Positions 1,992 to 40,960 of a DNA stretch of 64,000 bases are shown here, piece by piece. This DNA is from an uncultured Erysipelotrichaceae bacterium (GTDB lineage: Bacteria > Bacillota_I > Bacilli_A > RF39 > UBA660). The notes beneath the pieces are model-generated. The model was given only the letters and a program-made list of their open reading frames with translations, ran no database searches and had not been told where the DNA came from. Made by a program: the position numbers and the translations under genes. Location: NCBI GenBank assembly GCA_902764545.1, contig CACWWC010000004.1, forward strand, positions 1,746-65,745, written 5' to 3'. Position 1 is the stretch's first letter; each line of letters opens with the position of its first letter.

Positions 1992-2082
1992 AATTTTTCC
2001 TCCCTTCAATTTGAATTATAATATGTTTCTTGCTATAATAAAAATACATATTTATTATGTTAATTATAACTGGAGGTTATTT

Positions 2083-9304: not shown

Positions 9305-9309
9305 ACTAA

Positions 9310-9876
9310 TCACCTCAATAAATTATATATTTCATTCCAATCATTTACTCTAACAATATTTTGTTTTTTTAATTCTTCATCTGAAATGATTTTGTTTCTT
9401 CTTTCCGTCATTAATAATTTTAAATCACAATTAACTAAATTTCTAGGATTATCATCAATTCCTATATCAAAATGTATAAGAGTTTTATCATCTATAAATA
9501 TAAAATTATTAGAATTTAAAAATGGAAAGTAATTTTCTAAATATTCATATTTATTTTTCAGATTATTTGCTGCATCAAAAATATCTTCTTTCCATTTATA
9601 TGATGTTACTATAAAAACTTCATATTTTTCATTTAGTCTTTTTAATACTTTTATACAATCATTTAATGGTTCAATAAATGATCCTTCTTCATTTTTATAT
9701 AAATTGTTAAATTTATACTTTTTCTTAAATTCGGTTTCTCTACCTTTAATCAAATCTTGTCTATTAAAGCTTTTTAATTTTGTATAATCTACTTTTTTCA
9801 AAAACTCTTCTAAAAATGTGGGAAATCTATTATTCACTATGGTCTCATCCATATCTACTAAAATTGATTTTTTCAT
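9310..9876 (-). CDS. HAD-superfamily 5'(3')-deoxyribonucleotidase-like hydrolase
   Basis: Motif I 'ILVDMDETIVN' and motif IV 'IDDNPRN'. Size fits an NT5C-like enzyme. Confidence 0.6.
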   Translation of the reverse strand: MKKSILVDMDETIVNNRFPTFLEEFLKKVDYTKLKSFNRQDLIKGRETEFKKKYKFNNLYKNEEGSFIEPLNDCIKVLKRLNEKYEVFIVTSYKWKEDIFDAANNLKNKYEYLENYFPFLNSNNFIFIDDKTLIHFDIGIDDNPRNLVNCDLKLLMTERRNKIISDEELKKQNIVRVNDWNEIYNLLR

Positions 9877-9954
9877 ATAATAAAATACCTTCTTTGTGAA
9901 TATATTATATATAAAATATCTTTATTATACAATATTTGATATAATATTTACGAG

Positions 9955-11409
9955 GTGAAAAAGCGTATGAATATAGTTCACTATGAATCTTATCAAGAAA
10001 AAGATAAAATGTTATTAAAAGTACTGGATGAAAATGGGACAATTACTGATATTGAAGCTACTAAGGCTGAAGTTCATGAAAAACACTTGTGGCATCAGGA
10101 AGTTGCAATATTTATAATAAACAAAGACGGAAAAATCTTACTTCAAAAAAGAAGTGGAAATGTTCATTATAATAAAGGTAAATGGGGAATGATCGCTAAC
10201 CATGTTGGTGTCAATCAAACTTTAGTTGATGCCCTTATACAAAAAGCACATGAAGAAATCGGCTATGATATTGATCCAAATGATATAAGATTTCTTACAA
10301 TGTTAAAAAGAAATGAAGAAAGAGAACAGAGATTTACCTACTTTTATTATATAAAAACAGATATTGATGATAATGAGATTAAATTAAATGATTTTTTAGC
10401 AACTGAAAAAAAATGGTTTGATTTTTATGAACTTCAGGAATTGATGCTTACTGATAGTGATACTGTAGTTTTTAAAAACACTCCTGAATATATTAAAATA
10501 TTTGGTGAACTTTCAAAAATAATTAAAGGTTCTAATACTAATAAAGAATATAGAAAAAAAGAGTTTATTTTACTAAACACTTCTGATGGGTGTTTCTTAC
10601 CCGGTTTAATTCAACGTTGCGAAAAGAAATCTAAATCAATTATTATCTTTATTCATGGAAGTGGAGGAAATTTCTTTAAGTCTAATTATTATGAAGAAAT
10701 GTATGAAGATTTTAATTATTATGGATATGACTTTATGATTTGTAATAACCGGGGTTCTGAACAATTTTTTAGATTACATAGAAATAATGGTGGTATTTCT
10801 GAAACTATTAAAGCTGGTAATATTTATGAAAACTTTGATGAGTCTATATATGATATATCTGCGGCAGTGAATTATGCTAAAGAAGGTGGATATAAAGATA
10901 TTATTTTAATTGGTCAAAGTTTAGGTACTCTAAAAGTTCAATATTATTGTGAACAAATTGGAGATATAAATAAAGTCATACTACTAAGTCCAGTTGATAT
11001 GGTGAGTAGATTTAGATTTAGGGTTAAGGATAAATATAATGAATTGGTGGATATAAGTAAAAAGTTAGTTGAAGAAGGAAGACCTTATGAAATGGTTACC
11101 AATGAATTTTCTGCTATTAAAATCTACTCTACTATGGCTGTTGGAAGCAAGGCTGATTTATTTAAGTTGGAGGAGGATAGAGATATAACTAAACCTCTTA
11201 ATTATAAGGGATATGTCTCTATTATTGCTGGTACTAGTGAACATGTATACAAGGGATGGGATATGAGTTACGTTGAGAAGCGTTTGAGAGATAGGTTCAA
11301 AAATGCTAAAGTACAGTTTTATACTGTTCCTAATTCAACGCATGATTATCATGATCATGAAAAGCAAGTATCTAAATTAATAATTGATAGTATCAAAAAT
11401 ATGAAATAA
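9955..11409 (+). CDS. Nudix hydrolase / alpha-beta hydrolase fusion protein
   Basis: The N-terminal part has a Nudix-like fold ('LLQKRSGNVHYNKGKWGM...HEEIGY'). The C-terminal roughly 280 aa has 'FIHGSGGN' and the nucleophile elbow 'GQSLG'. Confidence 0.65.
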   Translation: MKKRMNIVHYESYQEKDKMLLKVLDENGTITDIEATKAEVHEKHLWHQEVAIFIINKDGKILLQKRSGNVHYNKGKWGMIANHVGVNQTLVDALIQKAHEEIGYDIDPNDIRFLTMLKRNEEREQRFTYFYYIKTDIDDNEIKLNDFLATEKKWFDFYELQELMLTDSDTVVFKNTPEYIKIFGELSKIIKGSNTNKEYRKKEFILLNTSDGCFLPGLIQRCEKKSKSIIIFIHGSGGNFFKSNYYEEMYEDFNYYGYDFMICNNRGSEQFFRLHRNNGGISETIKAGNIYENFDESIYDISAAVNYAKEGGYKDIILIGQSLGTLKVQYYCEQIGDINKVILLSPVDMVSRFRFRVKDKYNELVDISKKLVEEGRPYEMVTNEFSAIKIYSTMAVGSKADLFKLEEDRDITKPLNYKGYVSIIAGTSEHVYKGWDMSYVEKRLRDRFKNAKVQFYTVPNSTHDYHDHEKQVSKLIIDSIKNMK

Positions 11410-24470: not shown

Positions 24471-25460
24471 ATGAGCAAAGTATTAATATTTAGTCATGAA
24501 AGTGATATTGATGGACTTGGTTGTGTCGTTTTAGGAAAACTAGCCTTCTCAAATATTGATTTTAAACTTGTTTCAAATATTGAAGAGCTTGAATTATTAT
24601 TTAGAGATTATATTAAATCTGGTAAGCTTAATAACTATGAGAAAATATTTGTAACTGATTTAGCTTTATATGATCCATCATTAACTATGGTTGAAGAAAC
24701 TGAGTTAAAAGATAAAGTTCTTATTTTTGATCATCATAAAAGAGCAATAGAAGATGGAATGAATAGATATAATTTTACTACAATTATTGAGGAAGACGAT
24801 AATGGTAAGAGATGTGGATGTGACTTATTTTATGAATATTTAAGACAAAATAATCTTATTTCACCTACAACAGCAATCAGTGAATTTGTTGAATTAACTA
24901 GGCTTGAGGATACATGGGAGTGGAAAAAGAATAGTCAAGATGGAGAAAGAGCCCATGATTTAGCAATTCTTTTTAATGCTATTGGAATAGATGAATATTT
25001 GGGACAAATGACATTAAATCTAGTAAATAATAGCGAATCTTTTTCATTAAACAATAATCAAAGTAAAATTGTTCAAAGTAAAAAAGATGAATATAATAAA
25101 TTGTTATGTGATTTACTTAAAAATGCAGAATATTTTTTTGATGAAAATGGATATAAATATGGGATTGTTTTTGCAGATTACGAATATAGAAATGAATTAG
25201 CAGAATATATAAGAAACAACAATAATCCTGATTCAATTAAATATTTTATAGTGGTTGCGATGAATAAAGGAGAGTTTGGACAAAAGTCTTATAGATCAAT
25301 TGATGAGACTTTTGATGTTAATGAAGTTGCGATGAATCATGGAGGTGGTGGTCATCCTGCTGCTGCATCAGTTAGTATTACACAAGAACAAAAAGAAAAA
25401 TCACTTACTTTAACCAAAAGGAATAGTTTAAAGTTCCTAGCGGAAAGTAATTATTCATAA
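24471..25460 (+). CDS. DHH/DHHA1-family phosphoesterase (NrnA-like)
   Basis: 'HESDIDGLGC', 'VTDL', 'FDHHK' and 'GGGHPAAAS' are the canonical DHH and DHHA1 motifs. Confidence 0.8.
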   Translation: MSKVLIFSHESDIDGLGCVVLGKLAFSNIDFKLVSNIEELELLFRDYIKSGKLNNYEKIFVTDLALYDPSLTMVEETELKDKVLIFDHHKRAIEDGMNRYNFTTIIEEDDNGKRCGCDLFYEYLRQNNLISPTTAISEFVELTRLEDTWEWKKNSQDGERAHDLAILFNAIGIDEYLGQMTLNLVNNSESFSLNNNQSKIVQSKKDEYNKLLCDLLKNAEYFFDENGYKYGIVFADYEYRNELAEYIRNNNNPDSIKYFIVVAMNKGEFGQKSYRSIDETFDVNEVAMNHGGGGHPAAASVSITQEQKEKSLTLTKRNSLKFLAESNYS

Positions 25461-26373: not shown

Positions 26374-27057
26374 TTATTTAGCCCTAGATTGTGGGATTTT
26401 CTTAACAACAATATCATTATATCTATTAAGGAAATCATCTCTTTGTTGTTGATAAAAATTAATCCAGGCTAAAAATGTTTCAGGTCTTGTATTTTCTTTA
26501 CTTAATAATAGAAATGAATTATAATCTGGTAAATCTTCAACAAAGATATCATCATTAAAAAATGGAATCATGTAATGAGATAGTAAATTTTCATGGATTA
26601 TATTTTCAGAGATTGCTCCTGTACTTAAAAACATTACTGTTCTTTTAATTTTTTCAGCATTTCTATTGCATAATTCATATAGATTACTAAACTCCTCACC
26701 TACGATACCTTTTTCATAGCATGTTTTCCAAAACAAAGAGTTTGTTTCATCAATTACTCTAACAATGTCTTCTTCCCACCATGCAGTTTCCTTGTTAGAA
26801 TAGTAATATTTATACTCTATATTAGGTTTACTAATATTAATCATTATATCGTCATAGGCATTTTTGGCCGTTGCGCTTCCATTAACTATTTTTTCATACA
26901 TTGTATTAACTTTTAGTGTTGGATCATCTTTTTTGATAATTAATGGAGTCATCTTTTTCATTAACGCATCATATTCTGCATTAATTTCTTGGCAAATCTC
27001 ATTTCTTTTTCTTTGTTCATCCTCATCTTGTACTAAATCTGGATGGTACAATTTCAT
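26374..27057 (-). CDS. J-domain (DnaJ-like) protein with an N-terminus interrupted by an in-frame TAA
   Basis: 'KLYHPD' at the track start. The upstream in-frame codons read MNK-TAA-FKNKDFSNIRKEYVRL, which is J-domain helix II. Confidence 0.6.
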   Translation of the reverse strand: MKLYHPDLVQDEDEQRKRNEICQEINAEYDALMKKMTPLIIKKDDPTLKVNTMYEKIVNGSATAKNAYDDIMINISKPNIEYKYYYSNKETAWWEEDIVRVIDETNSLFWKTCYEKGIVGEEFSNLYELCNRNAEKIKRTVMFLSTGAISENIIHENLLSHYMIPFFNDDIFVEDLPDYNSFLLLSKENTRPETFLAWINFYQQQRDDFLNRYNDIVVKKIPQSRAK

Positions 27058-27201
27058 TAATCTAACATATTCTTTTCTAATGTTCGAAAAATCTTTATTT
27101 TTAAATTATTTATTCATAATTCTCCTTTTAATGGTTTACTCTTTTTTTATAAAAATATTTTATCATACTTTAATAAAAGTATACAAATAATCTTTAATTT
27201 A

Positions 27202-27900
27202 CTACGAATTTAATATCCATTCTATAATTAACTTTTTTATTTCATAGTATTCATCACTATCAAATTGCATATTTGCAATGCAGAACTTTTTTGAAGCTAT
27301 ATGAGAACAAAACATACACTCATATAAATCATAACAGTCCTGAATAAATAAAGAATTAATTATTTTATTGGAGCAAATTACATTATAACTATTACTACAT
27401 TCTTTTGAATCGTCACATCTTATGCAAAAATTACATGTTCCTGATCTTTGTGATGCAAGCAAAAACTCACTATTACCACAAGAATCACAATAAACCATAT
27501 TTTTAGAGTCACTGCAACTGGTGCTTCTGTATATATTTTCACACCTGTAAATTGTGTCACTTTTTGCTACATTAATAGAGTCATACACTCTTTCTGTGGT
27601 TGTTAAGTTAATTGTGTTCCATATTTCAATTAGTTCTTGTAGACTACTTATTTCTTTTTTTGGGAGCATCCAACCTATTTGTTTATCTCTTTTTTCCATA
27701 TTTTTATTTGTTATAAATTTTCCACTGTTGATAGAGTCTGCCCAGGTAATTTCATTTGTTGTTGAATCATTAACTTGTTTAGGGATTTTAACATCAAACG
27801 CAAATTTTTCTAATAATTCATTTAGTGAATAATTATTTTTTTTATCAAATACACTTTTAAATATTTTATTAACAGTTTCTATTGCTTTTGTATCATTCAT
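27202..27900 (-). CDS. cysteine-repeat protein of unknown function
   Basis: 232 aa. The C-terminal roughly 100 aa carries 14 Cys in a quasi-periodic C/S pattern ('CENIYRSTSCSDSKNMVYCDSCGNSEF...CNFCIRCDDSKECSNSYNVICSNK...CYDLYECMFCSHIASKKFC'). The start overlaps the ATPase stop (ATGA). Confidence 0.6.
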   Translation of the reverse strand: MNDTKAIETVNKIFKSVFDKKNNYSLNELLEKFAFDVKIPKQVNDSTTNEITWADSINSGKFITNKNMEKRDKQIGWMLPKKEISSLQELIEIWNTINLTTTERVYDSINVAKSDTIYRCENIYRSTSCSDSKNMVYCDSCGNSEFLLASQRSGTCNFCIRCDDSKECSNSYNVICSNKIINSLFIQDCYDLYECMFCSHIASKKFCIANMQFDSDEYYEIKKLIIEWILNS

Positions 27901-29750
27901 TCTTTCACGACCTTTCTACTTGATGAATTAGATATTAAAATACTTTTTAAACTTATATTATTTATATGAAAGTTGGTTTTATTATTTAATACTTTTTGTT
28001 CTTTAATAACGTTTTGAGCTTTTGCTTCTTCTTTAATTCTAGGGATACTTTTATAATCTAATATAACACCTTTAAATGCAGGTAATAAAATACCATTTCT
28101 ATCTATTCTAACAATACATTCTCGTGTTTGTAATTCAGTTAATAATTTAATCTTTTGTTCTTTAGAATTATCTAGAGGAATTTTCATATTAAAGTTATCA
28201 ACTAACAAATTTGCATCTAATTTTGATACTCTAAATATATAGTAGTTTATGGTATTAGCAAAGATAGAATTTTTTAATTCATCTGATATTTGATTAAAAT
28301 ATTGTCCAGCTAAAACTAAAGATAAATTATACTTTCTTGCTTCTGATAAATATCTTGCTAAAATAGGATTTTCAACAACTGGAACTTCATCAATAATAAA
28401 AATAATATGTTTATCAATCTCTTTTGATTGAATTATTGTTAGTAGTTGTTGCATTATCAGTCCCGAGATAGTTTTGGTTACTTTATTACCTAGTTTTGTT
28501 CTATCAAGTGAGAAAAGAGTTAAAAAGTTATCATTAATGGTTTTTTTTAGGTTATCATTTATTTTTTCTGAGCTAAATACAGGTAACATTTCCATTTCAT
28601 CAATAAAACCTATAATTGGTGATATTGCATCATTATAAGATTTGGTCTTTAAATCGTTAAAGTCCGATGAAAAAAAATCTATTACACTAAATGGTAATTT
28701 AGATTTTAATCTTTTGATTATTTCATTCCTATATTCCAAATCTAAAATAAGTTTTCTTAAATTTCTAAAATTAAATCCCTCATCTGTTAGCAATAAATGA
28801 ATAGAATGTCTTAAAACTCTCTCTAGTTTTGAATTATATTGATCAGCAATTAAAGATTTTAATAAATCAAGAAGCAGTTCTGTAGAGGCAACTTTGTCAC
28901 TGTTATTATTGATAAATAAATCAATACTATCTAGATTACATTTAAAGTCAATTACACGTCCTATGCCTCCTATATCATTTTCAAGATTAGCATGTGGATC
29001 AATTATTATAACTTTATATTTTTGTCTGAGAGATTTATTTTTGTAAATGTTATTTACTAATAGACTAATAAATTTTGATTTACCACAACCAGAAGATCCT
29101 ATCACAATAGAATGCTTATCAAAACTGAAATTATTTTGATTTAGATAAAATTTTCCTTGTAAATATGGGAAGGTATCAACTGATAATAGCGCATTATTTG
29201 AATCTGTATTTAATAGATGAAGTATCTTACTTATCTCAAGATATTTTGGTGATTTTTTATAAAAATATCTTTTATTACTCTCAAAATCTACTGATAAAAT
29301 AGTTGATGGTATGCCAAATAAAATTACATATTTTTTTATTAGATTATTTTTCTTTATGTAAACACTTATTTTTGATATAATCTTATTTTCATATAGTTTA
29401 AAAAAATCAATCTTCAAATATTTTAGACAACCTTTATTTCTAATCTCAGTATAATTGATTAAATCTATAACATTACTATCAATTTTAGGTAGTAATGGTA
29501 AAGTATAGTTGACTTTAGGTATCTTTATTCCTTTTATAGGTTTTAATATATAAGAGTTTAAATTATTTATAGTAGCAGGCAAACTACATTTAGTTTTAAT
29601 AAAATATCTTATTTGATTTTTTTCATTAATTATTATTATTTTCCATTTTCTTAATAAGCCATTATAATTTGATATTATATTTACTAAATCATGCCATTCT
29701 TCTTTAGATATATTTTTTTTAGTTAAGTATACTTCTGAATTATGCCACAT
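27897..29750 (-). CDS. HerA/FtsK/TraD-like P-loop ATPase with an unknown N-terminal domain
   Basis: Walker A 'VIGSSGCGKSKF', 'VIIIDPHANL', Walker B 'IIFIIDEVP' and 'ARKYNLSLVLAGQYFNQI'. Start set at the ATG after GAGGTG. Confidence 0.7.
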   Translation of the reverse strand: MWHNSEVYLTKKNISKEEWHDLVNIISNYNGLLRKWKIIIINEKNQIRYFIKTKCSLPATINNLNSYILKPIKGIKIPKVNYTLPLLPKIDSNVIDLINYTEIRNKGCLKYLKIDFFKLYENKIISKISVYIKKNNLIKKYVILFGIPSTILSVDFESNKRYFYKKSPKYLEISKILHLLNTDSNNALLSVDTFPYLQGKFYLNQNNFSFDKHSIVIGSSGCGKSKFISLLVNNIYKNKSLRQKYKVIIIDPHANLENDIGGIGRVIDFKCNLDSIDLFINNNSDKVASTELLLDLLKSLIADQYNSKLERVLRHSIHLLLTDEGFNFRNLRKLILDLEYRNEIIKRLKSKLPFSVIDFFSSDFNDLKTKSYNDAISPIIGFIDEMEMLPVFSSEKINDNLKKTINDNFLTLFSLDRTKLGNKVTKTISGLIMQQLLTIIQSKEIDKHIIFIIDEVPVVENPILARYLSEARKYNLSLVLAGQYFNQISDELKNSIFANTINYYIFRVSKLDANLLVDNFNMKIPLDNSKEQKIKLLTELQTRECIVRIDRNGILLPAFKGVILDYKSIPRIKEEAKAQNVIKEQKVLNNKTNFHINNISLKSILISNSSSRKVVKE

Positions 29751-29825
29751 AGTAATACACCTCACGATAAATTATATAAAAAAATGGAAATAAAAAACTG
29801 ACTTTTTTGCAATCACTTTTGTCAG

Positions 29826-30620
29826 TTAGTATATTGCAACTAGAAAGTCAGTTACGTTATCATGGTAGTATTCTAATTCAGGTAATTCTTTTAAATTATA
29901 ATTAATTGATGGAAGAAATTCATTATAAAATTTATGAGATAATTCTTGAATTTCTTTTGCATCTTGTGAATTAATTCTAAATTTAAGCCATTTGCTTTTT
30001 GGTATTATTATATGTTCAAATTTTTCTATCTTTTTATCAAATAAACAATAATATTTTTTGCTATTTTCTCGTTCTATATCATAGGTAATCATTCCATATT
30101 TTATCTCACCATATTTATTTGAATATTTATCTATTATATTTCTAAAGAATAATGGAGCGTCTATTCCAATTTTACTATTGTTAGTTGCTATACTAACTCC
30201 ATATAAATCCATTTTATCTAAAGTAATTATTTCATAATCTAATTCAGTTGTCATTTTAATATTTTCATTGAAAAATATTTTGGGAAAATTTTTCAGTTTA
30301 GTATGCTTATTTACTAAACTTGGTTTAATACCATGAAATCTTTCAAATGCTCTTGAAAAGGATGTTGCATTATCATATTTGTATTTAACCGCAACATCTA
30401 TTACTTTTAAGTTTCCTTTATATAAATCGTATCCGGCGTTAGATAATCGTCTTTTTCTAATGTATTCTGCTAGAGAAATATCTGTAATCATACTAAATAA
30501 TCTTTGCATTGTGTAAACATTAACACCTAATATTTTAGATAGTTTTTCATAACTAATTTCTTCTTCTAAATTGTCATCTATATATTTAGTTATCTCATTT
30601 AAATTTTTATAGATATTCAA
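29826..30620 (-). CDS. AraC-family regulator with a GyrI-like effector domain
   Basis: N-terminal HTH ('ISYEKLSKILGVNVYTMQRLFS' and 'NATSFSRAFERFHGIKPS'). The C-terminal roughly 150 aa is arranged like a GyrI/SbmC domain. Confidence 0.75.
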   Translation of the reverse strand: MNIYKNLNEITKYIDDNLEEEISYEKLSKILGVNVYTMQRLFSMITDISLAEYIRKRRLSNAGYDLYKGNLKVIDVAVKYKYDNATSFSRAFERFHGIKPSLVNKHTKLKNFPKIFFNENIKMTTELDYEIITLDKMDLYGVSIATNNSKIGIDAPLFFRNIIDKYSNKYGEIKYGMITYDIERENSKKYYCLFDKKIEKFEHIIIPKSKWLKFRINSQDAKEIQELSHKFYNEFLPSINYNLKELPELEYYHDNVTDFLVAIY

Positions 30621-30769
30621 ACTTCATCACCTATATAGTTATTATAGCATAGTTTTTCTTTTCAATATAAATATATATACCTATTTTTAAAAGATTTAAT
30701 TTTTAAGAAAATCTATTAAGATGAGTAATATTTTGATATAATATGTTGAAACGGAGATGATTTTATAAT

Positions 30770-31573
30770 ATGAATGGTTTAGTTATTAAAACTCATGATG
30801 ATTCTATACAGACATATGAGCAAGCTTGGATTGAGTTTGTTAAAAAAAATAAAGGCAGTTTATATAGAAATCCTTCTGCTTCTTTATATACATCAATGGT
30901 TTATGGTTTTGCAAATCATCTACCCTATTCAATGGATATTGAACAACCAGAATATGTCCCTTCTGACTTTTTAAACATGACTCCACTCGATGTTGATGAT
31001 AATAATTGGTTTAAATGGGAAGATAGGAGGACTTTTTTTAATTCACTAGTTAGATGGGGAGATACATTTAAAACTGGCATGTTGCTGCAAATGTGTAATG
31101 TCTTTCAGAAAATGATATTAGGCCAATTTCCGAGAGAGTTTGAATTAACTGAAGAATATTATACTGAATGGGGAATTAGTACGATGACTGGAGATAAAGA
31201 ATACAATAGATGTTTTTTTGAAACGTTAAAATTATTACCCACTTATTATAAAAAAATAGTTAGTACACTTAATAATGATGAGAGAAGAAGAATGTTGGAT
31301 GAAATGTATAATGATATAATGAATAAAATTGCTGCGCGGTTTGGTGGATTCAAAGAAACAGATGCTTGTGGAAATATCATTAGGGAACAAAAAGGGAGTG
31401 TACCTATCAGGCCAGGTAGTGATGTTCAAATGATTGTATATTGGGACAATATTACGTTTCATGATGGGATACCATCTATCATTCAAAGAATTAAAGATGA
31501 ACAACTTAAAACATATCATTCTCAAAAAGAGCAGCACCTGTCAGGAGAATGCCCTTCTTATTTAAACCAATAA
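30770..31573 (+). CDS. hypothetical protein
   Basis: 267-aa ORF divergent from the AraC gene, with GGAG upstream. No motif recognised. Confidence 0.5.
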   Translation: MNGLVIKTHDDSIQTYEQAWIEFVKKNKGSLYRNPSASLYTSMVYGFANHLPYSMDIEQPEYVPSDFLNMTPLDVDDNNWFKWEDRRTFFNSLVRWGDTFKTGMLLQMCNVFQKMILGQFPREFELTEEYYTEWGISTMTGDKEYNRCFFETLKLLPTYYKKIVSTLNNDERRRMLDEMYNDIMNKIAARFGGFKETDACGNIIREQKGSVPIRPGSDVQMIVYWDNITFHDGIPSIIQRIKDEQLKTYHSQKEQHLSGECPSYLNQ

Positions 31574-31638
31574 AATCGATTAAAGTTCAAAGACAGTAAT
31601 AACTTCTCACGGGAGGAATATCATTGGAAAAAGAATAA

Positions 31639-32337
31639 TTGTTAAAGCAAATTTATACAAATCTTGGTGTTGTAGATTGTTATATAAAAGATGGTGGATT
31701 AGGGTTTAATTTAGTGAATAAGAGTATGGACTTCAATGTTGTTATTCCAGAGCATATTTATAAAACACTTCTGGAAATAAGAGGTAAAACAGATGAAACA
31801 GGAGTTGAGTATCCCTTTGCAATGGTAGGTAATTTAGGGGATATTAATGGGGAAATTTATTTTTGTGTTTCTCTAGTAAAGACTTGCTATGATGGAAATG
31901 TTAATAATGGGCACGTTAAAACTTCTGATGATTTTAATAAGTGGTTATCAGAAAGAATAAATGATTATTCTTTTTGTATTTTATGTCATACACATCCTAA
32001 ATATGAAAAGACTACTTTTGATAAGTCTATTTTTGATACAGTCAAAAAAAATAACGGAAGCAAACTCTGTTTGCGTAATATTGGAATGAACATTAGTAAC
32101 AGTGACATTTTACAGCTTATTGGTCTTAAATTGGAACAAAGGAATATTAACAATAATATTTATTTTCTTCAAGGGATATCTTTACCAAATGGTGAATTTA
32201 ATATTTTGGATATTGAATTTGATGATAATAATCCTACCCTATGTTCAGTTCATAATGTTTATAGAATTTATGAAGATAAACTTATTCCTGTAAATAACAT
32301 TTGGAATAGCAAAGGTAAGAAAAAAGTCATTAATTAG
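31639..32337 (+). CDS. hypothetical protein with a possible JAB/MPN-like metal site
   Basis: 'GVEYPFAMVGN' and 'ILCHTHPKYEKTTFDKSIFD' give E...HxH...SxxD with non-canonical spacing. The TTG start is uncertain. Confidence 0.35.
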   Translation: MLKQIYTNLGVVDCYIKDGGLGFNLVNKSMDFNVVIPEHIYKTLLEIRGKTDETGVEYPFAMVGNLGDINGEIYFCVSLVKTCYDGNVNNGHVKTSDDFNKWLSERINDYSFCILCHTHPKYEKTTFDKSIFDTVKKNNGSKLCLRNIGMNISNSDILQLIGLKLEQRNINNNIYFLQGISLPNGEFNILDIEFDDNNPTLCSVHNVYRIYEDKLIPVNNIWNSKGKKKVIN

Positions 32338-32383
32338 TTCTATACCATTGAGTTTTTTACTTGTTTAAAGATGAATAATAAAA

Positions 32384-32407
32384 AAGAAAAGCATAATTTT
32401 CTTTTTT
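32384..32407. terminator. bidirectional rho-independent terminator
   Basis: Hairpin aagaaaa/ttttctt with loop gcataa, flanked by A- and T-runs. Confidence 0.6.
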
Positions 32408-32428
32408 ATTTTTATTAGTATTACGTTT

Positions 32429-33011
32429 CTAATTAATATAGTATTCCATTCCAAGCATATTTCTATGAGGTTCATTTGGCCTAAATTTATTGATGAAAAT
32501 ATAGTGTCCTGGTGCAGTTTTAAAACCAACTTTTTTGGATAAAGATATAGCTGCAACATTTTTGTCATAAACTATTAGCTTTAAAGAGTCATAACCATCT
32601 TGTCTCAATAATTCAATTAAATCTTCTATTATTCTTTGGGCGTACGTAATCGACATTTACTGCAAACATCTCTAAAAACTTAGATTTAGTATATTTTCAT
32701 TTGAAACTTGAACTTGAAACTTCATCATCAAATAAAGCAAAAAAACTTACAATATTATTATCCTCTTCACAAACATACAGTTTTTCTTGTTCTATAAGCC
32801 CTTTTAATTCTTCTGCTGGATAATATTCATTCCATAATTGTAACCCATTAGCGTTCATGTTTTTAACTATTTTTAAAGCAATGGTTTTAAGAGATTTTAA
32901 CTCTTCTTGTTTTGCCTTGCGAATTCTTAACTGAGGAATATCTTCTATATTAATTTTAATATTTAAATATTCTTTTTGTATCAAACTGAGTATTAGAACT
33001 TCAAATATCAC
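32429..33011 (-). pseudogene. disrupted GNAT acetyltransferase
   Basis: Two ORF fragments: an N-terminal 104 aa ending '...IVSFFALFDDE' and a C-terminal 75 aa ('AQRIIEDL...NVAAISLSKKVGF'). They are separated by 40 nt containing stops. The acetyl-CoA Q/RxxGxG/A loop is missing. Confidence 0.6.
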
Positions 33012-33057
33012 TTTAAGAAATCAAGTTTTTGAGATAATAAAGAAGAAATTAGATGAT

Positions 33058-33270
33058 TTATCTGAAAAATATGGAATAAATAGTAAAGCTTTTCCTGTTT
33101 ATCTTTTGAATCTTATCAATATCTATATTATTATTTTGAACTATTTTTAGAAAATAAATGTCATCTTTGTCTTTGACTTTTCTTAATATAGCACCAGGGT
33201 TACTATCACTAATTGTTTCAAATGTGGCTTTATCACTAAAAAATTTGATATTAAAAATTAAATTATCCAT
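33058..33270 (-). pseudogene. N-terminal remnant of an aminoglycoside-phosphotransferase/kinase-like gene
   Basis: 70-aa ORF with 'ISDSNPGAILRKVKDKDDIYFLKIV', which resembles the glycine-loop and Lys region of APH-type kinases. It stops abruptly and no kinase core follows. Confidence 0.4.
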
Positions 33271-34111
33271 TTTTCATTACCACTAAGGTTTTTTCCTTTC
33301 CATATTTTTTATAATCATTGCTACCCATTTTTTCTAAATAATTTTCAAAAGATAAATTATCTCCATTAATCAAACTAATTAAATTATTATAAAAATCCTT
33401 ATCAAATAAATAATTTGAAAATCCATCACTATAAACTATAACTATGTCACCATCATTTAATATCAATGAGCCTTCTTTTAAAAAATACTCAAATTCCGAT
33501 TCACCAGTTATTGCTCCATATGAATATTCATTATCTGGTTTATTACGATAGTTCTTTCTAACAATAACTCTAGCTTCTGGTTCATTCCAATTAAATGAAC
33601 CTGTATCAAAGTGCTTATTAACTCTTTCCATATCATCATCAGTTTTAAATATTAAATTTCCGTTCTTATCAAAAACAGCAACTCCACAATCACAAATATA
33701 ACTATAATATAAGTTATTATCTTCAATATATGCAGATGCACCAACCGCTCCGTAATAATCATTCTCCAAATAATCACATGTCTTAATGTGTATATCATTT
33801 AATTTTCTTACTTCCTTATTAGCTTTAATAAAAACATCTCTTAATGATATTTTTTTATTAATAATATTATTATAATTTGCTTCAAATATTTTACATATTA
33901 AGGTTGCTGCCAGACTGGAACCGCTTGGATTGGGATATTTAGCTATTCTTTCTTCAAAAGAAATAGAATTAAAGTTTTTTATCCCATTTGGATCTCTTGT
34001 TATACCATCAGCAACAACTGCAAAATTATTTTGACAATAGTAGCTATCTTCAATTGGAAAATTATATCCAATAGTTTTAATATTATCAAAAGTATTTTTA
34101 TACAATATCAT
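33263..34111 (-). CDS. PP2C-family Ser/Thr phosphatase
   Basis: 'AVVADGITRDP', 'GAVGASAY' and 'IVIVYSDGFSNYL' are the metal-binding Asp blocks of PP2C/SpoIIE-type phosphatases. Confidence 0.65.
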   Translation of the reverse strand: MILYKNTFDNIKTIGYNFPIEDSYYCQNNFAVVADGITRDPNGIKNFNSISFEERIAKYPNPSGSSLAATLICKIFEANYNNIINKKISLRDVFIKANKEVRKLNDIHIKTCDYLENDYYGAVGASAYIEDNNLYYSYICDCGVAVFDKNGNLIFKTDDDMERVNKHFDTGSFNWNEPEARVIVRKNYRNKPDNEYSYGAITGESEFEYFLKEGSLILNDGDIVIVYSDGFSNYLFDKDFYNNLISLINGDNLSFENYLEKMGSNDYKKYGKEKTLVVMKNG

Positions 34112-34414
34112 AGTATCACTACTTTCTATTTTGATATTTCTTTGTTGACTGTATTATATCATAATATTTAAAATTTTATAGAAACGTATAATAAATTTGT
34201 AATAAAAAGAAGTAGAAATCAGTCTCATTCATTCTGTTATATAATAAAAAAATCAGTCATTTTTCAGACTGAAGTTTATATTAAGTTCGAAAAGGTCGAA
34301 CAGATTCGTCACTGGAGCGATAACTTTACTTATATTCGAAAAAATATACTCCCAAAGTTGTTTGATTAAATCAACTAAATAAATTATAGCAGATATAGAA
34401 AATATTACAATAGA

Positions 34415-34438
34415 ATTCACCAAAAAATTCACCAAAAA
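34415..34438. repeat. perfect tandem 12-mer (attcaccaaaaa x2)
   Basis: Read directly from the sequence. It lies in a relatively G+C-enriched non-coding patch about 75 nt upstream of the 34513 gene. Confidence 0.9.
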
Positions 34439-34512
34439 ATCGGAGAAATTTCGTCACATGAATTGTGAAATATAATGATTTGGTGTACAATTTAATTGAT
34501 AATAAATGAGAG

Positions 34513-36015
34513 GTGTTAAATGTGAAAGTTTATGTAAAAAAAGAAGATAAAAATACTATGATTCCTAGAATTATTGTAACTATTGTATTTTTATCAGTTT
34601 CAGTTGGAATATTTATAGCTTTCTTTAAAAGTGGAAAATCTTTTATTGATGCATTAGCTTCGTTTGGAATTACATTATTATTTGCTATTATATTTCTTGG
34701 GTTTAGTATGTATTTTATTTATGCATTAATTAAACGTCCTAAAGGTTATAAAGCCAAACTTGTTAATAAAAAGGTTGAAACATATAACGGTAAGCAAATA
34801 ACATATATGGAGTTTAAGACAGAAAAAGAAAGAGAACAAGAAGAAGATTTTATTCCTGCTGATTATAAATGCTATACAATTGGAGAAAATAATTTAATTG
34901 TAGGAAATAACTATTCATTAAGAATTAAAGAATTTAATTGGGAGCCTAAATATGTTGAAGAAATTAATAATTCTTATGAAAATGGAATAAATAAAGTTTC
35001 AAGTAAAGTTCCTAATATGACTATGTCTCCAGTATTTTTTTCAGTAGGGTTAATTTTTGGCGGATTATTATTTCTTTGTATTTTAGGAATAATAATGTAT
35101 CCACAATATACTTCTACATATATAATGTTTGGTATTTTATGTGGTGTAGCATTATTTATGACATTTAAAGCAAGTAAAACATGGAAAGTTGATAATAATA
35201 TTGAACAAAATGAACAAAATATAAATATAGAATTAGAAAAAATAAAACCAATAAGCAATTATCAAGAAAAAGTTGGAAATATAGTAATTAAACATTTACT
35301 TATTCTTTTAGTAATATTTCCTATAGTATGGTCTATGATATTGTTACAAATGAATATACCAAAAGAATCATTTATAATTGCATTGTCAATGATTTTTTTT
35401 GTTGAATTACCAATAATTGTAATGATTTTATATAATATAGGCTATGATGATAGATTAATTAAAAAACATAAAGTTAACATTACAGAAAATATTAATATTG
35501 CTGATATAAAATATTTTAATATATTCAGACCTACAAAAAATACTACATTTCCTCAATATTTTATAGTTGATCAGAATAAAAATTTAATATTTAAGATTAA
35601 AAAGAGTAATTTTATCGGAAACAAATTTGTTATATGTAATCATCATAATATAAAAATTGGAGAAATAAAATCCAAAATATTTAGTTTAACTAATGAATTT
35701 GTTATAAATATAATAAATGAAAAACCATTCATTATTCGTTCCAAGATGCAATTACATTCAAATTATCAAGTTATAGGTCGTGATTATTATGTTAAAGGTG
35801 ATACACATTTAGTCAGAAACATTATTTATGATAACAAAGAAAACGATATTGCATATATATCTGCTATTTCAAAACATGATAACAATTGGTATGAATTAGG
35901 TAATATGGAAATTTCCTTAAATGAAAATGTAAATAATAGTGTTGATATTATGATAATGGCTTTATGCATTACAATGGGAAATTTTCAAACATTTGATAGA
36001 CGTATAGATAGATAA
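34513..36015 (+). CDS. multi-pass membrane protein with a C-terminal LURP-one/tubby-like (DUF567-like) domain
   Basis: At least 6 hydrophobic segments. The C-terminal roughly 160 aa ('FIVDQNKNLIFKIKK...FVICNHHNIKIGEIKSK...YQVIGRDYYVKGD') resembles scramblase/LOR-family repeats. Confidence 0.45.
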   Translation: MLNVKVYVKKEDKNTMIPRIIVTIVFLSVSVGIFIAFFKSGKSFIDALASFGITLLFAIIFLGFSMYFIYALIKRPKGYKAKLVNKKVETYNGKQITYMEFKTEKEREQEEDFIPADYKCYTIGENNLIVGNNYSLRIKEFNWEPKYVEEINNSYENGINKVSSKVPNMTMSPVFFSVGLIFGGLLFLCILGIIMYPQYTSTYIMFGILCGVALFMTFKASKTWKVDNNIEQNEQNINIELEKIKPISNYQEKVGNIVIKHLLILLVIFPIVWSMILLQMNIPKESFIIALSMIFFVELPIIVMILYNIGYDDRLIKKHKVNITENINIADIKYFNIFRPTKNTTFPQYFIVDQNKNLIFKIKKSNFIGNKFVICNHHNIKIGEIKSKIFSLTNEFVINIINEKPFIIRSKMQLHSNYQVIGRDYYVKGDTHLVRNIIYDNKENDIAYISAISKHDNNWYELGNMEISLNENVNNSVDIMIMALCITMGNFQTFDRRIDR

Positions 36016-36041
36016 TAAAAAAAAGACAAACTGAGTCATAT

Positions 36042-37337
36042 TTACCTAGAATTGTCTTTTTCTTTTTGGATATCTTTATCAAAATTATTAAGATCATGTT
36101 GTATGCCTTCGGCTCTTTTAGTTATTTCTTTACAATACTTATTATACTTATAAAATTCTTTAATTTTAGGTTGTATAGCATTTATTTCAGTAAGTATTTC
36201 ATTTTTCTTTTCATCAGTTTTTGCTCTATGGTATCTTTTCCATAGATTTTCTCTTTTACCTTTTAATTCACTTAATTCATTAGAGTTATTTTTAGCGAAG
36301 TTATCTAAATCTTCTTTAGTTACAATATTATTCTCATGCATAAATCTAACTTGCTGTGAAGTTTGCTCTAACTTGTAAACTTCATTTCTAATAGAGTAAG
36401 GAAGATATTGTTTTGGGTATTTCTTTGGAAATACTCCTAGCAGATAACAATAGTATAAGTATAATCCGTAGATACCTTTATGTGATTTATTAGTTTTACA
36501 GTATTCTTCAAAGATAGATTTTTGTGACATTGGTTTAAATACTATTTGTCTTGAAGAATATAATCTTTCACTTAACCTGTCTTTTGAATATTCTTCACCA
36601 AAAACATTTTCTATTCTAACTTTATCTTCACCATCTCTGTAAATAATTATAATACCATTACGAGAATATACTTTATAACCTAATGATCTCATTCTTTCAA
36701 ATAATTGTTTTAAGGTAACTGAATAACTTATAGAACTATCCAAATCTTCTTTTAGTGTTCTGTAATAATCATTATTTATAACTTTATAATTGTAGGTACT
36801 TTTATAACCAATATCTTCATCTAAAACAGATAGACCATATTCAGCACATAGTGAATCAGAAATATGTCTTAACTTTGCTAGATTAGTTCTATTGTTATTA
36901 TATTTCTTACCATCTTTATATGAAACAGAGTTGATTATGAAATGATTGTGTATGTGATTAGTATTTTGATGTGTAGCAACAACCACTTCATAATCTTTAA
37001 ACATTTCACTAACAAATTTAACTCCTATTTCGTGAGCAATATCTGGAGTAACTTCTCCTTCTTTAAATGATTGGTAACCATGATAAGCAAGAACACCATC
37101 TTTCTTATTATAATAATCTTTTGTATCAATCATGTCATCATAGGGATAATCTTCATTACAGTTTAAACAACTTATATAACAAACCTTTTCTTTTTTTAAA
37201 TTGTAATCTTGTTTACCTTCTAAATAATCATAATCATCTTTACCATAATCTTCATTAAAAGTTTTCTCGGGATTGATAATATAATTTATGGACTGGTTTA
37301 AATTATTCTTAATACTCCAAATTGATGTTGTCACCAT
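36042..37337 (-). CDS. MobA/VirD2-family relaxase (mobilisation nuclease)
   Basis: Histidine triad 'VATHQNTNHIHNHFIINSVSY', preceded by 'AYHGYQSF'. The C-terminus is predicted to be coiled-coil. Confidence 0.8.
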   Translation of the reverse strand: MVTTSIWSIKNNLNQSINYIINPEKTFNEDYGKDDYDYLEGKQDYNLKKEKVCYISCLNCNEDYPYDDMIDTKDYYNKKDGVLAYHGYQSFKEGEVTPDIAHEIGVKFVSEMFKDYEVVVATHQNTNHIHNHFIINSVSYKDGKKYNNNRTNLAKLRHISDSLCAEYGLSVLDEDIGYKSTYNYKVINNDYYRTLKEDLDSSISYSVTLKQLFERMRSLGYKVYSRNGIIIIYRDGEDKVRIENVFGEEYSKDRLSERLYSSRQIVFKPMSQKSIFEEYCKTNKSHKGIYGLYLYYCYLLGVFPKKYPKQYLPYSIRNEVYKLEQTSQQVRFMHENNIVTKEDLDNFAKNNSNELSELKGKRENLWKRYHRAKTDEKKNEILTEINAIQPKIKEFYKYNKYCKEITKRAEGIQHDLNNFDKDIQKEKDNSR

Positions 37338-37475
37338 TTGTATGGTTTAGCCTTTCTTTTGGGGTGGTGGGAGTACCAGCCCGTTGCTTGCTTATGACAA
37401 CATTAGACATAAATTAACTCCTTTAGAATAATTTCTTCAGCAGTATTCTTATAATTATTCATCAATTTTACCCAT

Positions 37476-38609
<1,134 letters not shown>

Positions 38610-38671
38610 TTAGTTATTTATACGACAAAAACAACCAATATTGTGGGAGAGTATATAAACTCACCAATTCA

Positions 38672-38944
38672 TTAATGCCTTGCTATGTACTCTGATAACT
38701 CAGACAATGGGATTTTCTTCTTTAAATTCCCTATGTAAAAATGTTTCTGTTCATTGAAGGATAGGTATAACTTATCTCCAATAATTACTTTATGTGGCTC
38801 TACATACGCTAAATTGGTATGTTCCACAATTCTTAAGTAGCCCTCAATTATTTGATAGGACTTCTTATTAAATTTGCAAGACCAATTAATTTTGGCTTTG
38901 AGTTCATCACTCATATTGATTTTCTTTTTTACGATATTAATCAT
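38672..38944 (-). CDS. hypothetical small protein next to the recombinase
   Basis: 90-aa ORF upstream of and co-oriented with the recombinase gene. No motif recognised. Confidence 0.45.
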   Translation of the reverse strand: MINIVKKKINMSDELKAKINWSCKFNKKSYQIIEGYLRIVEHTNLAYVEPHKVIIGDKLYLSFNEQKHFYIGNLKKKIPLSELSEYIARH

Positions 38945-39037
38945 ACCACATCACACCCTTTCTTTGTAATAGCAACAAAAAAATCAACTTGCGTTGATTT
39001 AATCATTAACATCGCTTGGTGCGACGATTTTATCTTT

Positions 39038-39112
39038 TGGAGCGAATGAGGGGAATTGAACCCCCATCACAGCCTTGGCAAGGCCGTATTCTAACCATTG
39101 AACCACATTCGC
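39038..39112 (-). tRNA. tRNA-Gly (anticodon GCC)
   Basis: The reverse complement gcgaatgtggttcaatggttagaatacggccttGCCaaggctgtgatgggggttcaattcccctcattcgctcca folds as a cloverleaf with an encoded CCA. Confidence 0.9.
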
Positions 39113-39117
39113 ATACA

Positions 39118-39191
39118 TGGAGGGGCCTACCGGATTTGAACCGGTGATCAGGGTGTTGCAGACCCACGCCTTACCACTTGGCTAAAGCCCC
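39118..39191 (-). tRNA. tRNA-Cys (anticodon GCA)
   Basis: The reverse complement ggggctttagccaagtggtaaggcgtgggtctGCAacaccctgatcaccggttcaaatccggtaggcccctcca has a 7-bp acceptor stem, a T-loop ggttcaaatcc and an encoded CCA. Confidence 0.9.
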
Positions 39192-39203
39192 ATTGCATTT
39201 AAT

Positions 39204-39232
39204 ATTATATCAGACAAGAATTTAAAATTCAA
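39204..39232 (-). promoter_or_regulatory. sigma-A type promoter for the tRNA-Cys/tRNA-Gly pair
   Basis: The minus strand reads TTGAAT, a 17-nt spacer, then TATAAT, ending 12 nt upstream of tRNA-Cys. Confidence 0.6.
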
Positions 39233-39242
39233 CATAATTAAT

Positions 39243-39269
39243 AAAAAAAGAAGTATTTTTTAATACTTC
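39243..39269 (-). terminator. rho-independent terminator of the 39260..40468 gene
   Basis: Hairpin gaagtatt/aatacttc with loop tttt, followed by a U7 run on the minus strand. It overlaps the stop codon. Confidence 0.7.
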
Positions 39270-40468
39270 CATAATTCTATTATATTATTATAATTGTATT
39301 TCAATTCATTATATTCTAATATTTTTTTTAGTCCATCATTTTCACTATAATGGTACAATATATCATCTTTAATTAACACAATATCATTTTCATATATATA
39401 CCATGTTGATACATTGTTTAATGTAAATAATAAAACCTTATTGTAATTATTCTTTTTATAATAGAATTCATTATTATCTTTTATATATCTATAATCTTTA
39501 TTGATAATCTGCTCAGTATTATTTAATTCTTTTCTTTCAATAAATAATTGTTTATTCATGAAATAATCACTTTTATTTAATACTTTCCTTTTACCTTTGT
39601 TATAGTATATATATCCGCCTTCCTCATTTCCAATTTCTTTAAGTTCTTGTTTACTTACATTCAGTGTATACTCCTTTTTACTTTTGTTATCAGTTAAATA
39701 TATTAAATCATTTTCTACTCCATTTATATATGTATCTTTTGATAATTTCTCTTTTAATTTAAAGTTTTTTAGTTTTTCTTTTTTTAAGTCATAATAATAA
39801 ACTTTCTCTATATTTAATACACTTGAATTATCAAATAGAACAAAATATTTTGAAGTTACTGTTTTCATGACATTGTCGTATATGTCATAATCTAATATTT
39901 TAATATAGTTATTTTCTCTATTATCAAAAGTATATATTCCTTTATAATCCCATACGATGTATTTATAATTATTTAAAATATTATTTTTGTATTTTTGTAT
40001 TTTCTTATAGCTTTCGGTATTTGATTTTTCTATTGGTATGTTAATGTTTATATGTTCCTTTTTTAATTTATTTAAAATATTTTTATAAGATTTATTATTT
40101 TTTAGATAGTAGTTTGATACTTGTTGATTATTCATTTGACAGTAAATATTTTTTTGAAGATTTGTTTTATACTTTGGTAGTATACATGTTACATTACCAT
40201 CTTTATATAATTTAATGCCGCTTAATATCTTCTTTTGTTTGTGAAGATTTTTTTGTATTGTATATGTTATTTCAATTTTTTTATTCTTAATGTTAATATC
40301 ATAATAATGTTTTTTGTTATCAATATAAAATGTTTCTTTAATTTTGTAGTTGTCTTTCGTATATGTTATTTTATGTTCTTTAGTAAATATTTTTACTATT
40401 ACTGGAATAATCATTATTATTGTAATTATTATTAGATAATATTTATACCTCTTCAATTTTACCACCAT
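39260..40468 (-). CDS. membrane-anchored K/N/Y-rich hypothetical protein
   Basis: 402 aa with an N-terminal TM segment 'YYLIIITIIMIIPVIVKIF'. The rest is low-complexity and beta-rich in character. Confidence 0.5.
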   Translation of the reverse strand: MVVKLKRYKYYLIIITIIMIIPVIVKIFTKEHKITYTKDNYKIKETFYIDNKKHYYDINIKNKKIEITYTIQKNLHKQKKILSGIKLYKDGNVTCILPKYKTNLQKNIYCQMNNQQVSNYYLKNNKSYKNILNKLKKEHININIPIEKSNTESYKKIQKYKNNILNNYKYIVWDYKGIYTFDNRENNYIKILDYDIYDNVMKTVTSKYFVLFDNSSVLNIEKVYYYDLKKEKLKNFKLKEKLSKDTYINGVENDLIYLTDNKSKKEYTLNVSKQELKEIGNEEGGYIYYNKGKRKVLNKSDYFMNKQLFIERKELNNTEQIINKDYRYIKDNNEFYYKKNNYNKVLLFTLNNVSTWYIYENDIVLIKDDILYHYSENDGLKKILEYNELKYNYNNIIELWKY

Positions 40469-40510
40469 CTAAATTATAGCAAAATAAAAGACTAGTATCT
40501 AGCCTATTTA

Positions 40511-40960
40511 TTAAAAATTAGTCTCTTCTCGTGGTGGGTATTTTTTCTTTTCTTCCATCATATAACTTGATATTTCTGTTTCAATTTCTCTCAATGCTTC
40601 TTTACTTATATTTGATAATGTAACAAATTCCTTTATTGTATCTATGTATACTTTTCCCCAGAAAATACCACTTGATATTTTTAAATCATTGTACATATCT
40701 GGAGTAATAGAATTTAAGAAATATCCAATTAATACTCTTTTTCTTCCAATTAGAATTCTCTTATTTGTCAGAGCGATAACAGCACTTCCAAATATATTAA
40801 ATGGATTATCATTCTTTTGTGCAATAAAAGCATATTCCACTATTTCATCTGGATTCAGATGCATTTCTACAACTGATGAGTTTTGTTTAAGGCGCCAACC
40901 TATTGTCCATGGATGTCTTTCTTTAAACTCTAATACCTTTTTGTATACTGAATTTTCCAT
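40511..40960 (-). CDS. bacterial PH-domain-like protein (putative)
   Basis: 'DEIVEYAFIAQKN...SAVIALTNKRILIG...' resembles YokE/bPH-type domains. Confidence 0.4.
   Translation of the reverse strand: MENSVYKKVLEFKERHPWTIGWRLKQNSSVVEMHLNPDEIVEYAFIAQKNDNPFNIFGSAVIALTNKRILIGRKRVLIGYFLNSITPDMYNDLKISSGIFWGKVYIDTIKEFVTLSNISKEALREIETEISSYMMEEKKKYPPREETNF

Follow-up and report, generated by a model that had tools for sequence, protein, structure and literature searches.

A conserved cassette consisting of an AraC/GyrI-like regulator gene, a control element, an ATPase gene and a Cys/Ser-repeat gene was firmly identified on the minus strand of the window, the 64,000-nucleotide stretch analyzed here (contig CACWWC010000004.1, positions 1,746 to 65,745, from an uncultured Erysipelotrichaceae bacterium). 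Comparison of related loci demonstrated that the ATPase and repeat genes, which are predicted to be translationally coupled, have been co-inherited in lineages that are far apart. Motors of the HerA/FtsK type have been described together with nuclease, SIR2 or relaxase proteins, and the repeat protein adds a new partner to this known kind of motor. Hundreds of members of the repeat family were found, in two domains of life and in very small genomes, where few dispensable genes are kept, and the ligand-sensing regulator and near-invariant operator-like element make the cassette unusually testable. Its role, once known, would annotate a pair common in human and animal gut metagenomes, and could show a new use of a ring ATPase.

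The window has a G+C content of approximately 26%, and in the list of its open reading frames (ORFs) the minus-strand order is an AraC-family gene, a 617-aa ATPase, a 232-aa Cys/Ser-repeat ORF and an ORF with an HPD motif. The regulator gene (29826..30620; 264 aa), the usual first gene of the cassette, is followed by the conserved control region (29751..29826), which carries ACTGA repeats, a -10-like box and a ribosome-binding site (RBS) in the alignment of the AraC-ATPase spacer. Next come the gene for a soluble P-loop ATPase of the HerA/FtsK superfamily (27897..29750) and, with its start overlapping the ATPase stop, the gene for a Cys/Ser hexapeptide-repeat protein (27202..27900), referred to below as the Cys gene. 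The HPD-motif ORF is part of a J-like-domain pseudogene (26374..27116) with TAA as codon 4, a bystander outside the cassette. A total of 148 related loci were compared, comprising 68 species-level genome loci and 80 metagenome loci, with approximately 160 loci fetched in all; individual loci are designated by L numbers. Frequencies are among cassette-bearing loci and not among all genomes of the clade, and the metagenome scan that supplied loci gave mostly close relatives. The relatives are gut metagenome-assembled genomes labeled as uncultured Bacilli, Tenericutes or Mollicutes, "Candidatus Coprovivens" or Firmicutes bacterium CAG:582, a clade that we take to be GTDB order RF39. In this order UGA is read as a stop codon (PMC8629427).

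The ATPase and Cys genes were adjacent and on the same strand in all 68 genome loci, and the ATPase gene lay upstream of the Cys gene in every one of the 56 metagenome loci (of 80) that had enough upstream DNA. Fifty of these 56 loci passed strict adjacency, and in the other six the best match ended 100 to 850 bp before the Cys gene. The 415 genes flanking the cassette formed 316 clusters, the largest with five members; because the flanks differ nearly everywhere, the linkage is not leftover synteny. Flanking genes were chiefly metabolic or housekeeping, with matches to defense models merely scattered among them. A single-domain relative of the Cys gene was also found directly 3' of an orthologous ATPase gene in four unrelated bacterial contigs (L078, 49% G+C; L079, 58% G+C; L081; L082), whose ATPases share 24 to 37% identity with that of the window; L081 is a 1.2-Mb contig in which the cassette lies beside rpoBC-S12-S7. 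The pairing proposed in a first-pass annotation of this DNA, made from the letters alone, is thus borne out by 68 of 68 genome loci and recurs in four distant lineages.

In archaea, one of the four loci examined has an ATPase beside a Cys-family array; in the other three, no ATPase was found within the flanks read (6 to 10 kb per side). The positive locus (L069; 1..14555 of a 629-kb Micrarchaeia contig) carries at least nine tandem genes of the Cys family, each encoding approximately 530 aa in double copy and separated by gaps of a few bases, and the array runs past the end of the locus. The abutting ATPase gene (723 aa) is convergent with the array, and its product matched the profile of the Bacilli ATPases at 2e-42, covering the same positions, and the PADLOC mad8 model at 1.2e-12. 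The ATPase orthologues of L078, L079, L081, L082 and L069 all align over their full length. A scan of IMG/VR with the Cys profile found no relative, and tblastn with both proteins against INPHARED and PLSDB found none beyond generic DUF87 ATPase cores; the context of the best plasmid match was uninformative. Literature searches on the pair, on DUF87 with AraC/GyrI regulators and on HerA partners in DPANN and the candidate phyla radiation (CPR) found no description. The earlier statement that no described system combines these genes stands, within these searches, for the ATPase-Cys pair; the J-gene partner that had been included in it was not supported. At L076 a lone Cys-family gene lies between two large serine recombinase genes (195..1829 and 9134..10879), near an MmeI-type restriction-modification gene, and may be carried on a mobile element.

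The ATPase ORF runs from an ATG at 29750 to a stop at 27897 and carries VIGSSGCGKSKF, VIIIDPHANL, IIFIIDEVP and ARKYNLSLVLAGQYFNQI, so that all four motifs and the 617-aa length reported in the first-pass annotation were located. Its architecture comprises an N-terminal domain of approximately 205 aa, Walker A (GSSGCGKS), a helical insert, Walker B (IIDEV) and an RKYN...GQY..Q block. Residues 1 to approximately 205 had no match in Pfam, NCBIfam or PADLOC, in line with the first-pass annotation, in which nothing was recognized in an N-terminal region of about 215 aa. Two Pfam models passed their cutoffs, DUF87, the HerA central domain (2.4e-7; 31.5 bits versus 23.2), and TrwB_AAD_bind (2.9e-6; residues 418 to 490; 26.9 versus 20.5), whereas TraG-D_C (16.4 versus 22), NCBIfam TraD (TIGR03743; 12 bits versus 366) and HerA_antiphage (NF042943; 16.1 bits versus 800, residues 210 to 242 only) fell below theirs, and NCBIfam EccCb gave a weak match (2.8e-5) far under its curated cutoff. 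The best-scoring named profile was PADLOC mad8 (1.5e-14; residues 208 to 509), with the PADLOC HerA models matching at Walker A only. Using a profile built from 14 diverse orthologues, in which the core motifs are invariant, the closest PDB matches were defense-type HerA (8xau, 2.5e-8; 8wiv, 3.1e-8), followed by an FtsK/SpoIIIE-family chain (4nh0, 2e-7) and TrwB (5.5e-4), these matches spanning the Walker A and RKY..Q blocks only; archaeal HerA (4d2i) matched at 5.6e-3. The placement in the HerA/FtsK/TraD superfamily made at first reading is supported by DUF87 and by the motifs. No membrane segment is present, as the maximum 19-residue Kyte-Doolittle mean is 1.25. On these matches the ATPase is classified as a soluble HerA/FtsK-superfamily member that is neither a coupling protein nor a known defense HerA.

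AlphaFold models of the ATPase and the Cys protein were built from shallow alignments (77 to 89% identity). In the ATPase model the N terminus is beta-rich and mostly has a predicted local distance difference test score (pLDDT) below 50; on the question of a HAS barrel, Foldseek alignments had TM scores below 0.31. Foldseek with this poor model, used at the superfamily level only, ranked SIR2-HerA and DUF4297-HerA first and also matched TrwB. The extreme C terminus of the ATPase (residues ~590 to 617, about 27897..27980) is conserved in the close clade as F594 followed by SLKDILISNSxSRK, with F594, L601, K602, I604, L605, S609 and K613 invariant in 32 sequences. This tail is missing in L078 and L079, and the archaeal protein has a long Lys-rich tail instead; it may be a partner-binding peptide.

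The stop codon of the ATPase gene and the start codon of the Cys gene share 4 bp (ATGA at 27897 to 27900), confirming the overlap noted previously, and translational coupling is therefore implied. The Cys protein contains 13 Cys residues, the majority conserved among 70 orthologues, in agreement with its earlier description as a 232-aa Cys-repeat protein. It is laid out as an alpha/beta region (residues 1 to ~105), approximately 16 hexads (108 to 203) and a C-terminal helix, each hexad having the form [S/C]-x-x-hydrophobic-hydrophobic-x, and in a diverse alignment the register moves by 3 residues at about residue 156. The hexad register is clear, and the hydrophobic period-6 signal was matched by only 2 of 5,000 shuffles; the two halves of the repeats show a weak mutual resemblance (hhalign P of about 1e-3), and the pLDDT of the model across the repeats is 25 to 31. 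The repeat half is predicted to form a beta-solenoid with a Ser/Cys ladder. As in left-handed hexapeptide beta-helices and the pentapeptide-repeat DNA mimics (Qnr/MfpA/AlbG), the repeat is short and regular with stacked small and hydrophobic positions. It differs from those solenoids in placing S/C at position i and hydrophobic residues at i+3/i+4, following neither the [LIV]-[GAED]-x2-[STAV]-x pattern nor a pentapeptide, and the Pfam Hexapep and Pentapeptide models did not match it. The protein is mildly acidic (pI 5.3 to 6.8 among the repeat partners).

No match to the Cys protein was found in Pfam, NCBIfam, PADLOC or the PDB with either the single sequence or profiles, and the family had one weak match in PHROGs (PHROG 15341 of unknown function, 1.6e-4). 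A profile search of a 50%-clustered library identified 544 representatives at an E value of 1e-3 or lower, many of them 520 to 540 aa in length and containing two copies of the whole domain; these double-length relatives belong to "Candidatus Micrarchaeota"/Micrarchaeia, Parvarchaeota and Ainarchaeum. By these searches, the Cys protein founds a protein family undescribed in the databases searched. Only S114, C198, C207, I208, N210 and Y218 are near-invariant across the broad family, and as aligned they make up no recognizable catalytic set. The motif C195-x2-C198-x-H200-x6-C207-I-A-N210 was considered as a zinc site (C195/C198/H200/C207), which is invariant in the close clade; the site was rejected on the loss of H200 in the wider family and on the N and A that archaeal proteins carry at its last two positions. 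The same residue losses ruled out a Cys-His-Asn catalytic triad. A ribosomally synthesized and post-translationally modified peptide precursor, considered for the Ser/Cys-rich half, was also rejected, the C-terminal helix being conserved and modifying enzymes not being linked.

The regulator matched three Pfam models above their cutoffs, HTH_18 (1.1e-15; 58.1 bits), Cass2 (1.4e-9; 38.8 bits) and GyrI-like (4.5e-8; 33.9 bits), and is assigned from these domains to the AraC family with a C-terminal GyrI-like/Cass2 effector-binding domain, an architecture of the Rob/YgiV type. PADLOC gave no match to it. It was located upstream of the ATPase gene on the same strand in 54 of 68 genome loci and 42 of 52 metagenome loci, making it the commonest third member of the cassette, and a regulator of the same architecture lies directly upstream of the ATPase-Cys pair in the distant locus L082. 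Rob-type regulators govern stress and drug-resistance genes (PMC9178005), and STM3175/YgiV, an AraC plus GyrI-like protein, binds the gyrase poison albicidin (PMC10414762). The cassette regulator shares with Rob and STM3175 (YgiV) the combination of AraC DNA-binding and GyrI-like domains (PMC9178005; PMC10414762), but its identity to them is low and the ACTGA repeats are a candidate binding site only.

The spacer between the regulator and ATPase genes (~76 bp) had a mean pairwise identity of 71% across approximately 76 distinct loci, compared with 40% for a 75-nt stretch downstream of the Cys gene. Its consensus reads TAA-ACTGAC-AAA-ACTGAT-N9-GTCAGT-T run-N-TGnTATACT-N-GAGGTGA-ATG. In the window, the arms ACTGAC (29826 to 29821) and GTCAGT (29802 to 29797) enclose an 18-nt loop and are followed by a T run (29796 to 29791); the loop holds a degenerate second repeat, AGTGAT (29817 to 29812; consensus ACTGAT), and the region further contains a -10-like TATAAT (29776 to 29771) and the RBS GAGGTG (29763 to 29758). 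The 64-kb window contains a single site for ACTGAY-N14-22-GTCAGTTTT, against 0 expected, and the looser pattern ACTGAY-N14-22-RTCAGTTT was found at one site per locus in 85 loci, always just 5' of the ATPase gene. The pattern is retained upstream of the ATPase gene even where the AraC gene is displaced or absent (L038, L039, L059 and L065), and the hairpin sequence is read as a conserved element of the ATPase promoter region. We conclude from its conservation that the spacer element is the putative operator/promoter of the ATPase operon.

The hairpin at 29796 to 29827 described in the first-pass annotation is present, but as an RNA it is weak (-7.3 kcal/mol, z = -1.2, with 26 of 200 shuffles equally stable). 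It was not called in a terminator scan of the window, covariation was not found in the stem alignment and Rfam gave no match over 26000 to 30900; in some distant loci, however, the hairpin is strong (11 to 13 bp, z = -4.5). The element in the window is notable for conservation of sequence and not for stability, and may also provide the regulator gene with a weak terminator. Its earlier use as a boundary excluding the AraC gene from the unit was not sustained, given the frequency of that gene in the cassette and the assignment of the hairpin sequence to the putative ATPase promoter. At L082 (7240..7273), the ACTGA repeats of the ATPase spacer are replaced by another palindrome, TTGCAAAG-N8-CTTTGCAA, a possible operator for the regulator of that lineage.

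On the same strand, the J gene has an RBS-preceded ATG at 27116 and a TAA at codon 4 (MNK*FKNKDFSNIRKEYVRLMKLYHPD), and its open frame (26374..27057) starts at 27057, 4 residues before HPD. The Pfam DnaJ model scored 26.3 bits against a cutoff of 27.8, aligned at profile positions 11 to 55 only, and helix I is missing. L080, which has 99.4% nucleotide identity to the window, carries the same stop at codon 4 and an internal deletion of approximately 460 bp in the gene. The in-frame TAA and this further deletion mark the J gene of both strains as a pseudogene, a decaying bystander outside the cassette. The HPD motif reported earlier is thus real, but in a broken gene with a subthreshold DnaJ match. 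The trio of ATPase, Cys-repeat and J-domain genes put forward at that stage is syntenic in no other genome, as no homologue of the window J protein was found at any of the 148 other loci (0/68 genome; 0/80 metagenome). J-domain genes made up 5 of 869 flanking ORFs, indistinguishable from chance. They are found in L037 at 1678..2169 (163 aa, upstream) and 8664..10421 (585 aa, directly downstream of the Cys gene) and, within one species, in L106/L107 (2433..2957) and L109 (2472..2969), encoding 165 to 174 aa. One of them is divergent from the AraC gene, and they have only the J domain in common with the window pseudogene.

Upstream of the regulator, approximately 10 kb (30621..40510) separate the AraC gene from a bPH-domain gene (40511..40960). 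This stretch contains tRNA-Gly/tRNA-Cys (39038..39191), a serine recombinase gene (37476..38585), a MobA/VirD2 relaxase gene (36042..37337) and a PP2C-like gene, along with a 500-aa ORF without an assigned function and several shorter ones. In L030, the AraC gene directly adjoins thioredoxin-like and bPH genes; because their counterparts in the window lie some 10 kb away, the stretch resembles an integrative mobilizable element that has inserted next to the cassette. The island context suggested in the first-pass annotation is therefore present as a recombinase/relaxase insertion, which adjoins the cassette rather than surrounding it. Within the stretch, a pair of small neighboring ORFs on the minus strand (75 and 104 aa; 32429..33011) resembles the halves of a GNAT acetyltransferase when the translations are read by eye, and probably represents a split GNAT pseudogene.

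Although any cellular role assigned to the cassette is a guess, the reading that we favor, tentatively and at somewhat less than an even chance of being correct as a whole, is that it encodes a ligand-induced, DNA-directed ring motor with a solenoid partner that serves in a stress or xenobiotic response. The Rob/YgiV-type regulator would bind a small molecule through its GyrI-like domain and act on the invariant ACTGA repeats at the -35 position, switching on the two-gene operon. The ATPase would form a ring motor, as in its solved relatives, and the repeat protein, a predicted beta-solenoid with no conserved catalytic residues, would be made in matched amounts as a fixed partner of the ring, acting as an adaptor or specificity subunit or else as a plug or mimic. 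The complex would then act on DNA in an inducible stress or xenobiotic response. Such a role is considered more probable than mobile immunity because of the clade-wide retention of the cassette, its housekeeping surroundings and the type of regulator. A broader proposal, which we regard as doubtful though worth stating, is that the pair forms the core of an unrecognized two-component machine outside HerA-NurA repair, HerA-effector immunity and conjugative coupling. Its range would take in small-genome gut Bacilli, further bacteria, DPANN archaea and, for the repeat protein only, at least one CPR lineage, with a partner of new fold or family that is doubled and multiplied in DPANN; if true, drug- or toxin-induced DNA protection or clearing is one example of what such a machine could do.

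Several observations weigh against the stress-response reading. The target of the complex is probably DNA, but superfamily membership is the sole basis for this, and the two AlphaFold models are of poor quality (pLDDT 43 and 49). An AraC gene is not nearby in about one-fifth of loci, the spacer sequence of the distant locus L082 differs, and Cys-family genes occur with no adjacent ATPase in L071, L073, L074/L075 ("Candidatus Dojkabacteria," CPR) and L076. The best named profiles for the ATPase are defense associated (mad8 and defense HerA), and both the patchy cross-domain distribution and the expansion of the partner in Micrarchaeia are typical of conflict systems.

These last points lead to a serious rival, a new HerA-type antiphage or antiplasmid system in which the ATPase ring would detect foreign DNA or load onto it, with the repeat protein as a nonenzymatic effector or sensor; we judge it to have a real but clearly minor share of the probability. 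SIR2-HerA (Nezha) and DUF4297-HerA are likewise two-gene modules in which a soluble HerA-type ATPase of approximately 600 aa with an extra N-terminal domain has a dedicated partner, and defense HerAs are the closest solved sequences to the cassette ATPase, as Foldseek with the poor model agrees. The variable surroundings, with serine recombinases near 11 of 148 related loci, the few neighbors that match restriction enzyme, DrmC, AriA and PD-Lambda-2 models, and the cross-domain distribution with its nine-gene paralogue array in L069 also fit defense. In the PADLOC search suggested at first reading, however, the ATPase core matched mad8 and HerA while no complete known system was found, the Cys protein and its archaeal and CPR relatives having no match. 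The mad8 model covers a 314-position core only, and the cassette has no linkage to any other MADS gene. In contrast to SIR2-HerA and DUF4297-HerA, the partner is a repeat protein without a SIR2, nuclease or enzymatic signature, the ATPase gene comes first, and the cassette is clade conserved with an AraC/GyrI regulator; no SIR2 or DUF4297/nuclease effector gene recurs in its flanks. Retention of the cassette and its near-invariant promoter region in at least 68 species-level genomes contrasts with the turnover usual for defense genes, its neighbors are chiefly metabolic or housekeeping genes, and it was not found in the phage, plasmid and IMG/VR searches. To our knowledge, a small-molecule-sensing AraC/GyrI regulator would also be unusual in a defense system. 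HerA-NurA is the DNA end-resection pair of archaea and some bacteria, and resembles the cassette as an operon pair of a HerA-type ring ATPase and one partner in both bacteria and archaea, often among housekeeping genes. The cassette partner is nevertheless not NurA-like, having neither nuclease motifs nor a match to any family, and the match of the ATPase to 4d2i reached 5.6e-3 only.

A protein-handling machine of the EssC/EccC (type VII secretion) kind, in which the ATPase recognizes, unfolds or exports the repeat proteins as substrates, is improbable. It could explain the large paralogue arrays of Micrarchaeia, where one ATPase stands beside nine paralogues, and it draws on the weak EccCb (2.8e-5) and 4nh0 (2e-7) matches and on the conserved C-terminal helix of the repeat proteins with its near-invariant Tyr. 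Yet membrane segments are absent from both proteins and the linked genes include no membrane or channel component, the EssC similarity is confined to the Walker A region, and in bacteria the 1:1 coupling of translation points to a stoichiometric partner and not cargo. The two remaining readings are largely refuted. That the ATPase is an orphan type IV coupling protein (TraD/TrwB/VirD4-like) of a mobilizable element, with a relaxase approximately 6 kb away and the Cys protein as an accessory, is highly improbable. The motif order, the helical insert separating Walker A from Walker B and the matches to TrwB_AAD_bind (2.9e-6) and, below threshold, TraG-D_C are shared with coupling proteins, an archaeal orthologue is named [quoted passage not shown] by NCBI, and relaxase-recombinase pairs similar to that of the window lie upstream in L002, L004 and L047. 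The ATPase nonetheless has no N-terminal membrane anchor and no consistent relaxase or type IV secretion system (T4SS) neighbor: a relaxase is near 4 of approximately 160 loci and none of the distant ones, T4SS genes are not present, the TraD score is 12 bits against 366, and the element in the window is, by comparison with L030, an insertion beside the cassette. The orphan DNA-translocation module entertained in the first-pass annotation is accordingly unlikely. Equally little probability is given to a three-gene operon in which a J-domain protein recruits Hsp70/DnaK to an ATPase-Cys machine; the HPD motif with J-like helix II/III and the unrelated J-domain genes flanking the cassette in L037 and L106/L107/L109 speak for it, but the codon-4 stop, the deletion in L080 and the want of a homologue in 148 loci do not, and the other J genes, of different architecture, position and strand, may be there by chance.

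Genes of the DHH family were noted at three places. In the window, a DHH/DHHA1 gene (24471..25460) is located two genes downstream of the cassette; a relative with 61% identity to it (L044, 4062..5045) lies directly upstream of the AraC gene; and in "Candidatus Dojkabacteria" (L074/L075, 6936..7979) the lone Cys-family gene is preceded, at a distance of 21 bp, by a DHH-family phosphoesterase gene. DHH genes near the cassette are rare in other loci, and their presence is probably coincidental.

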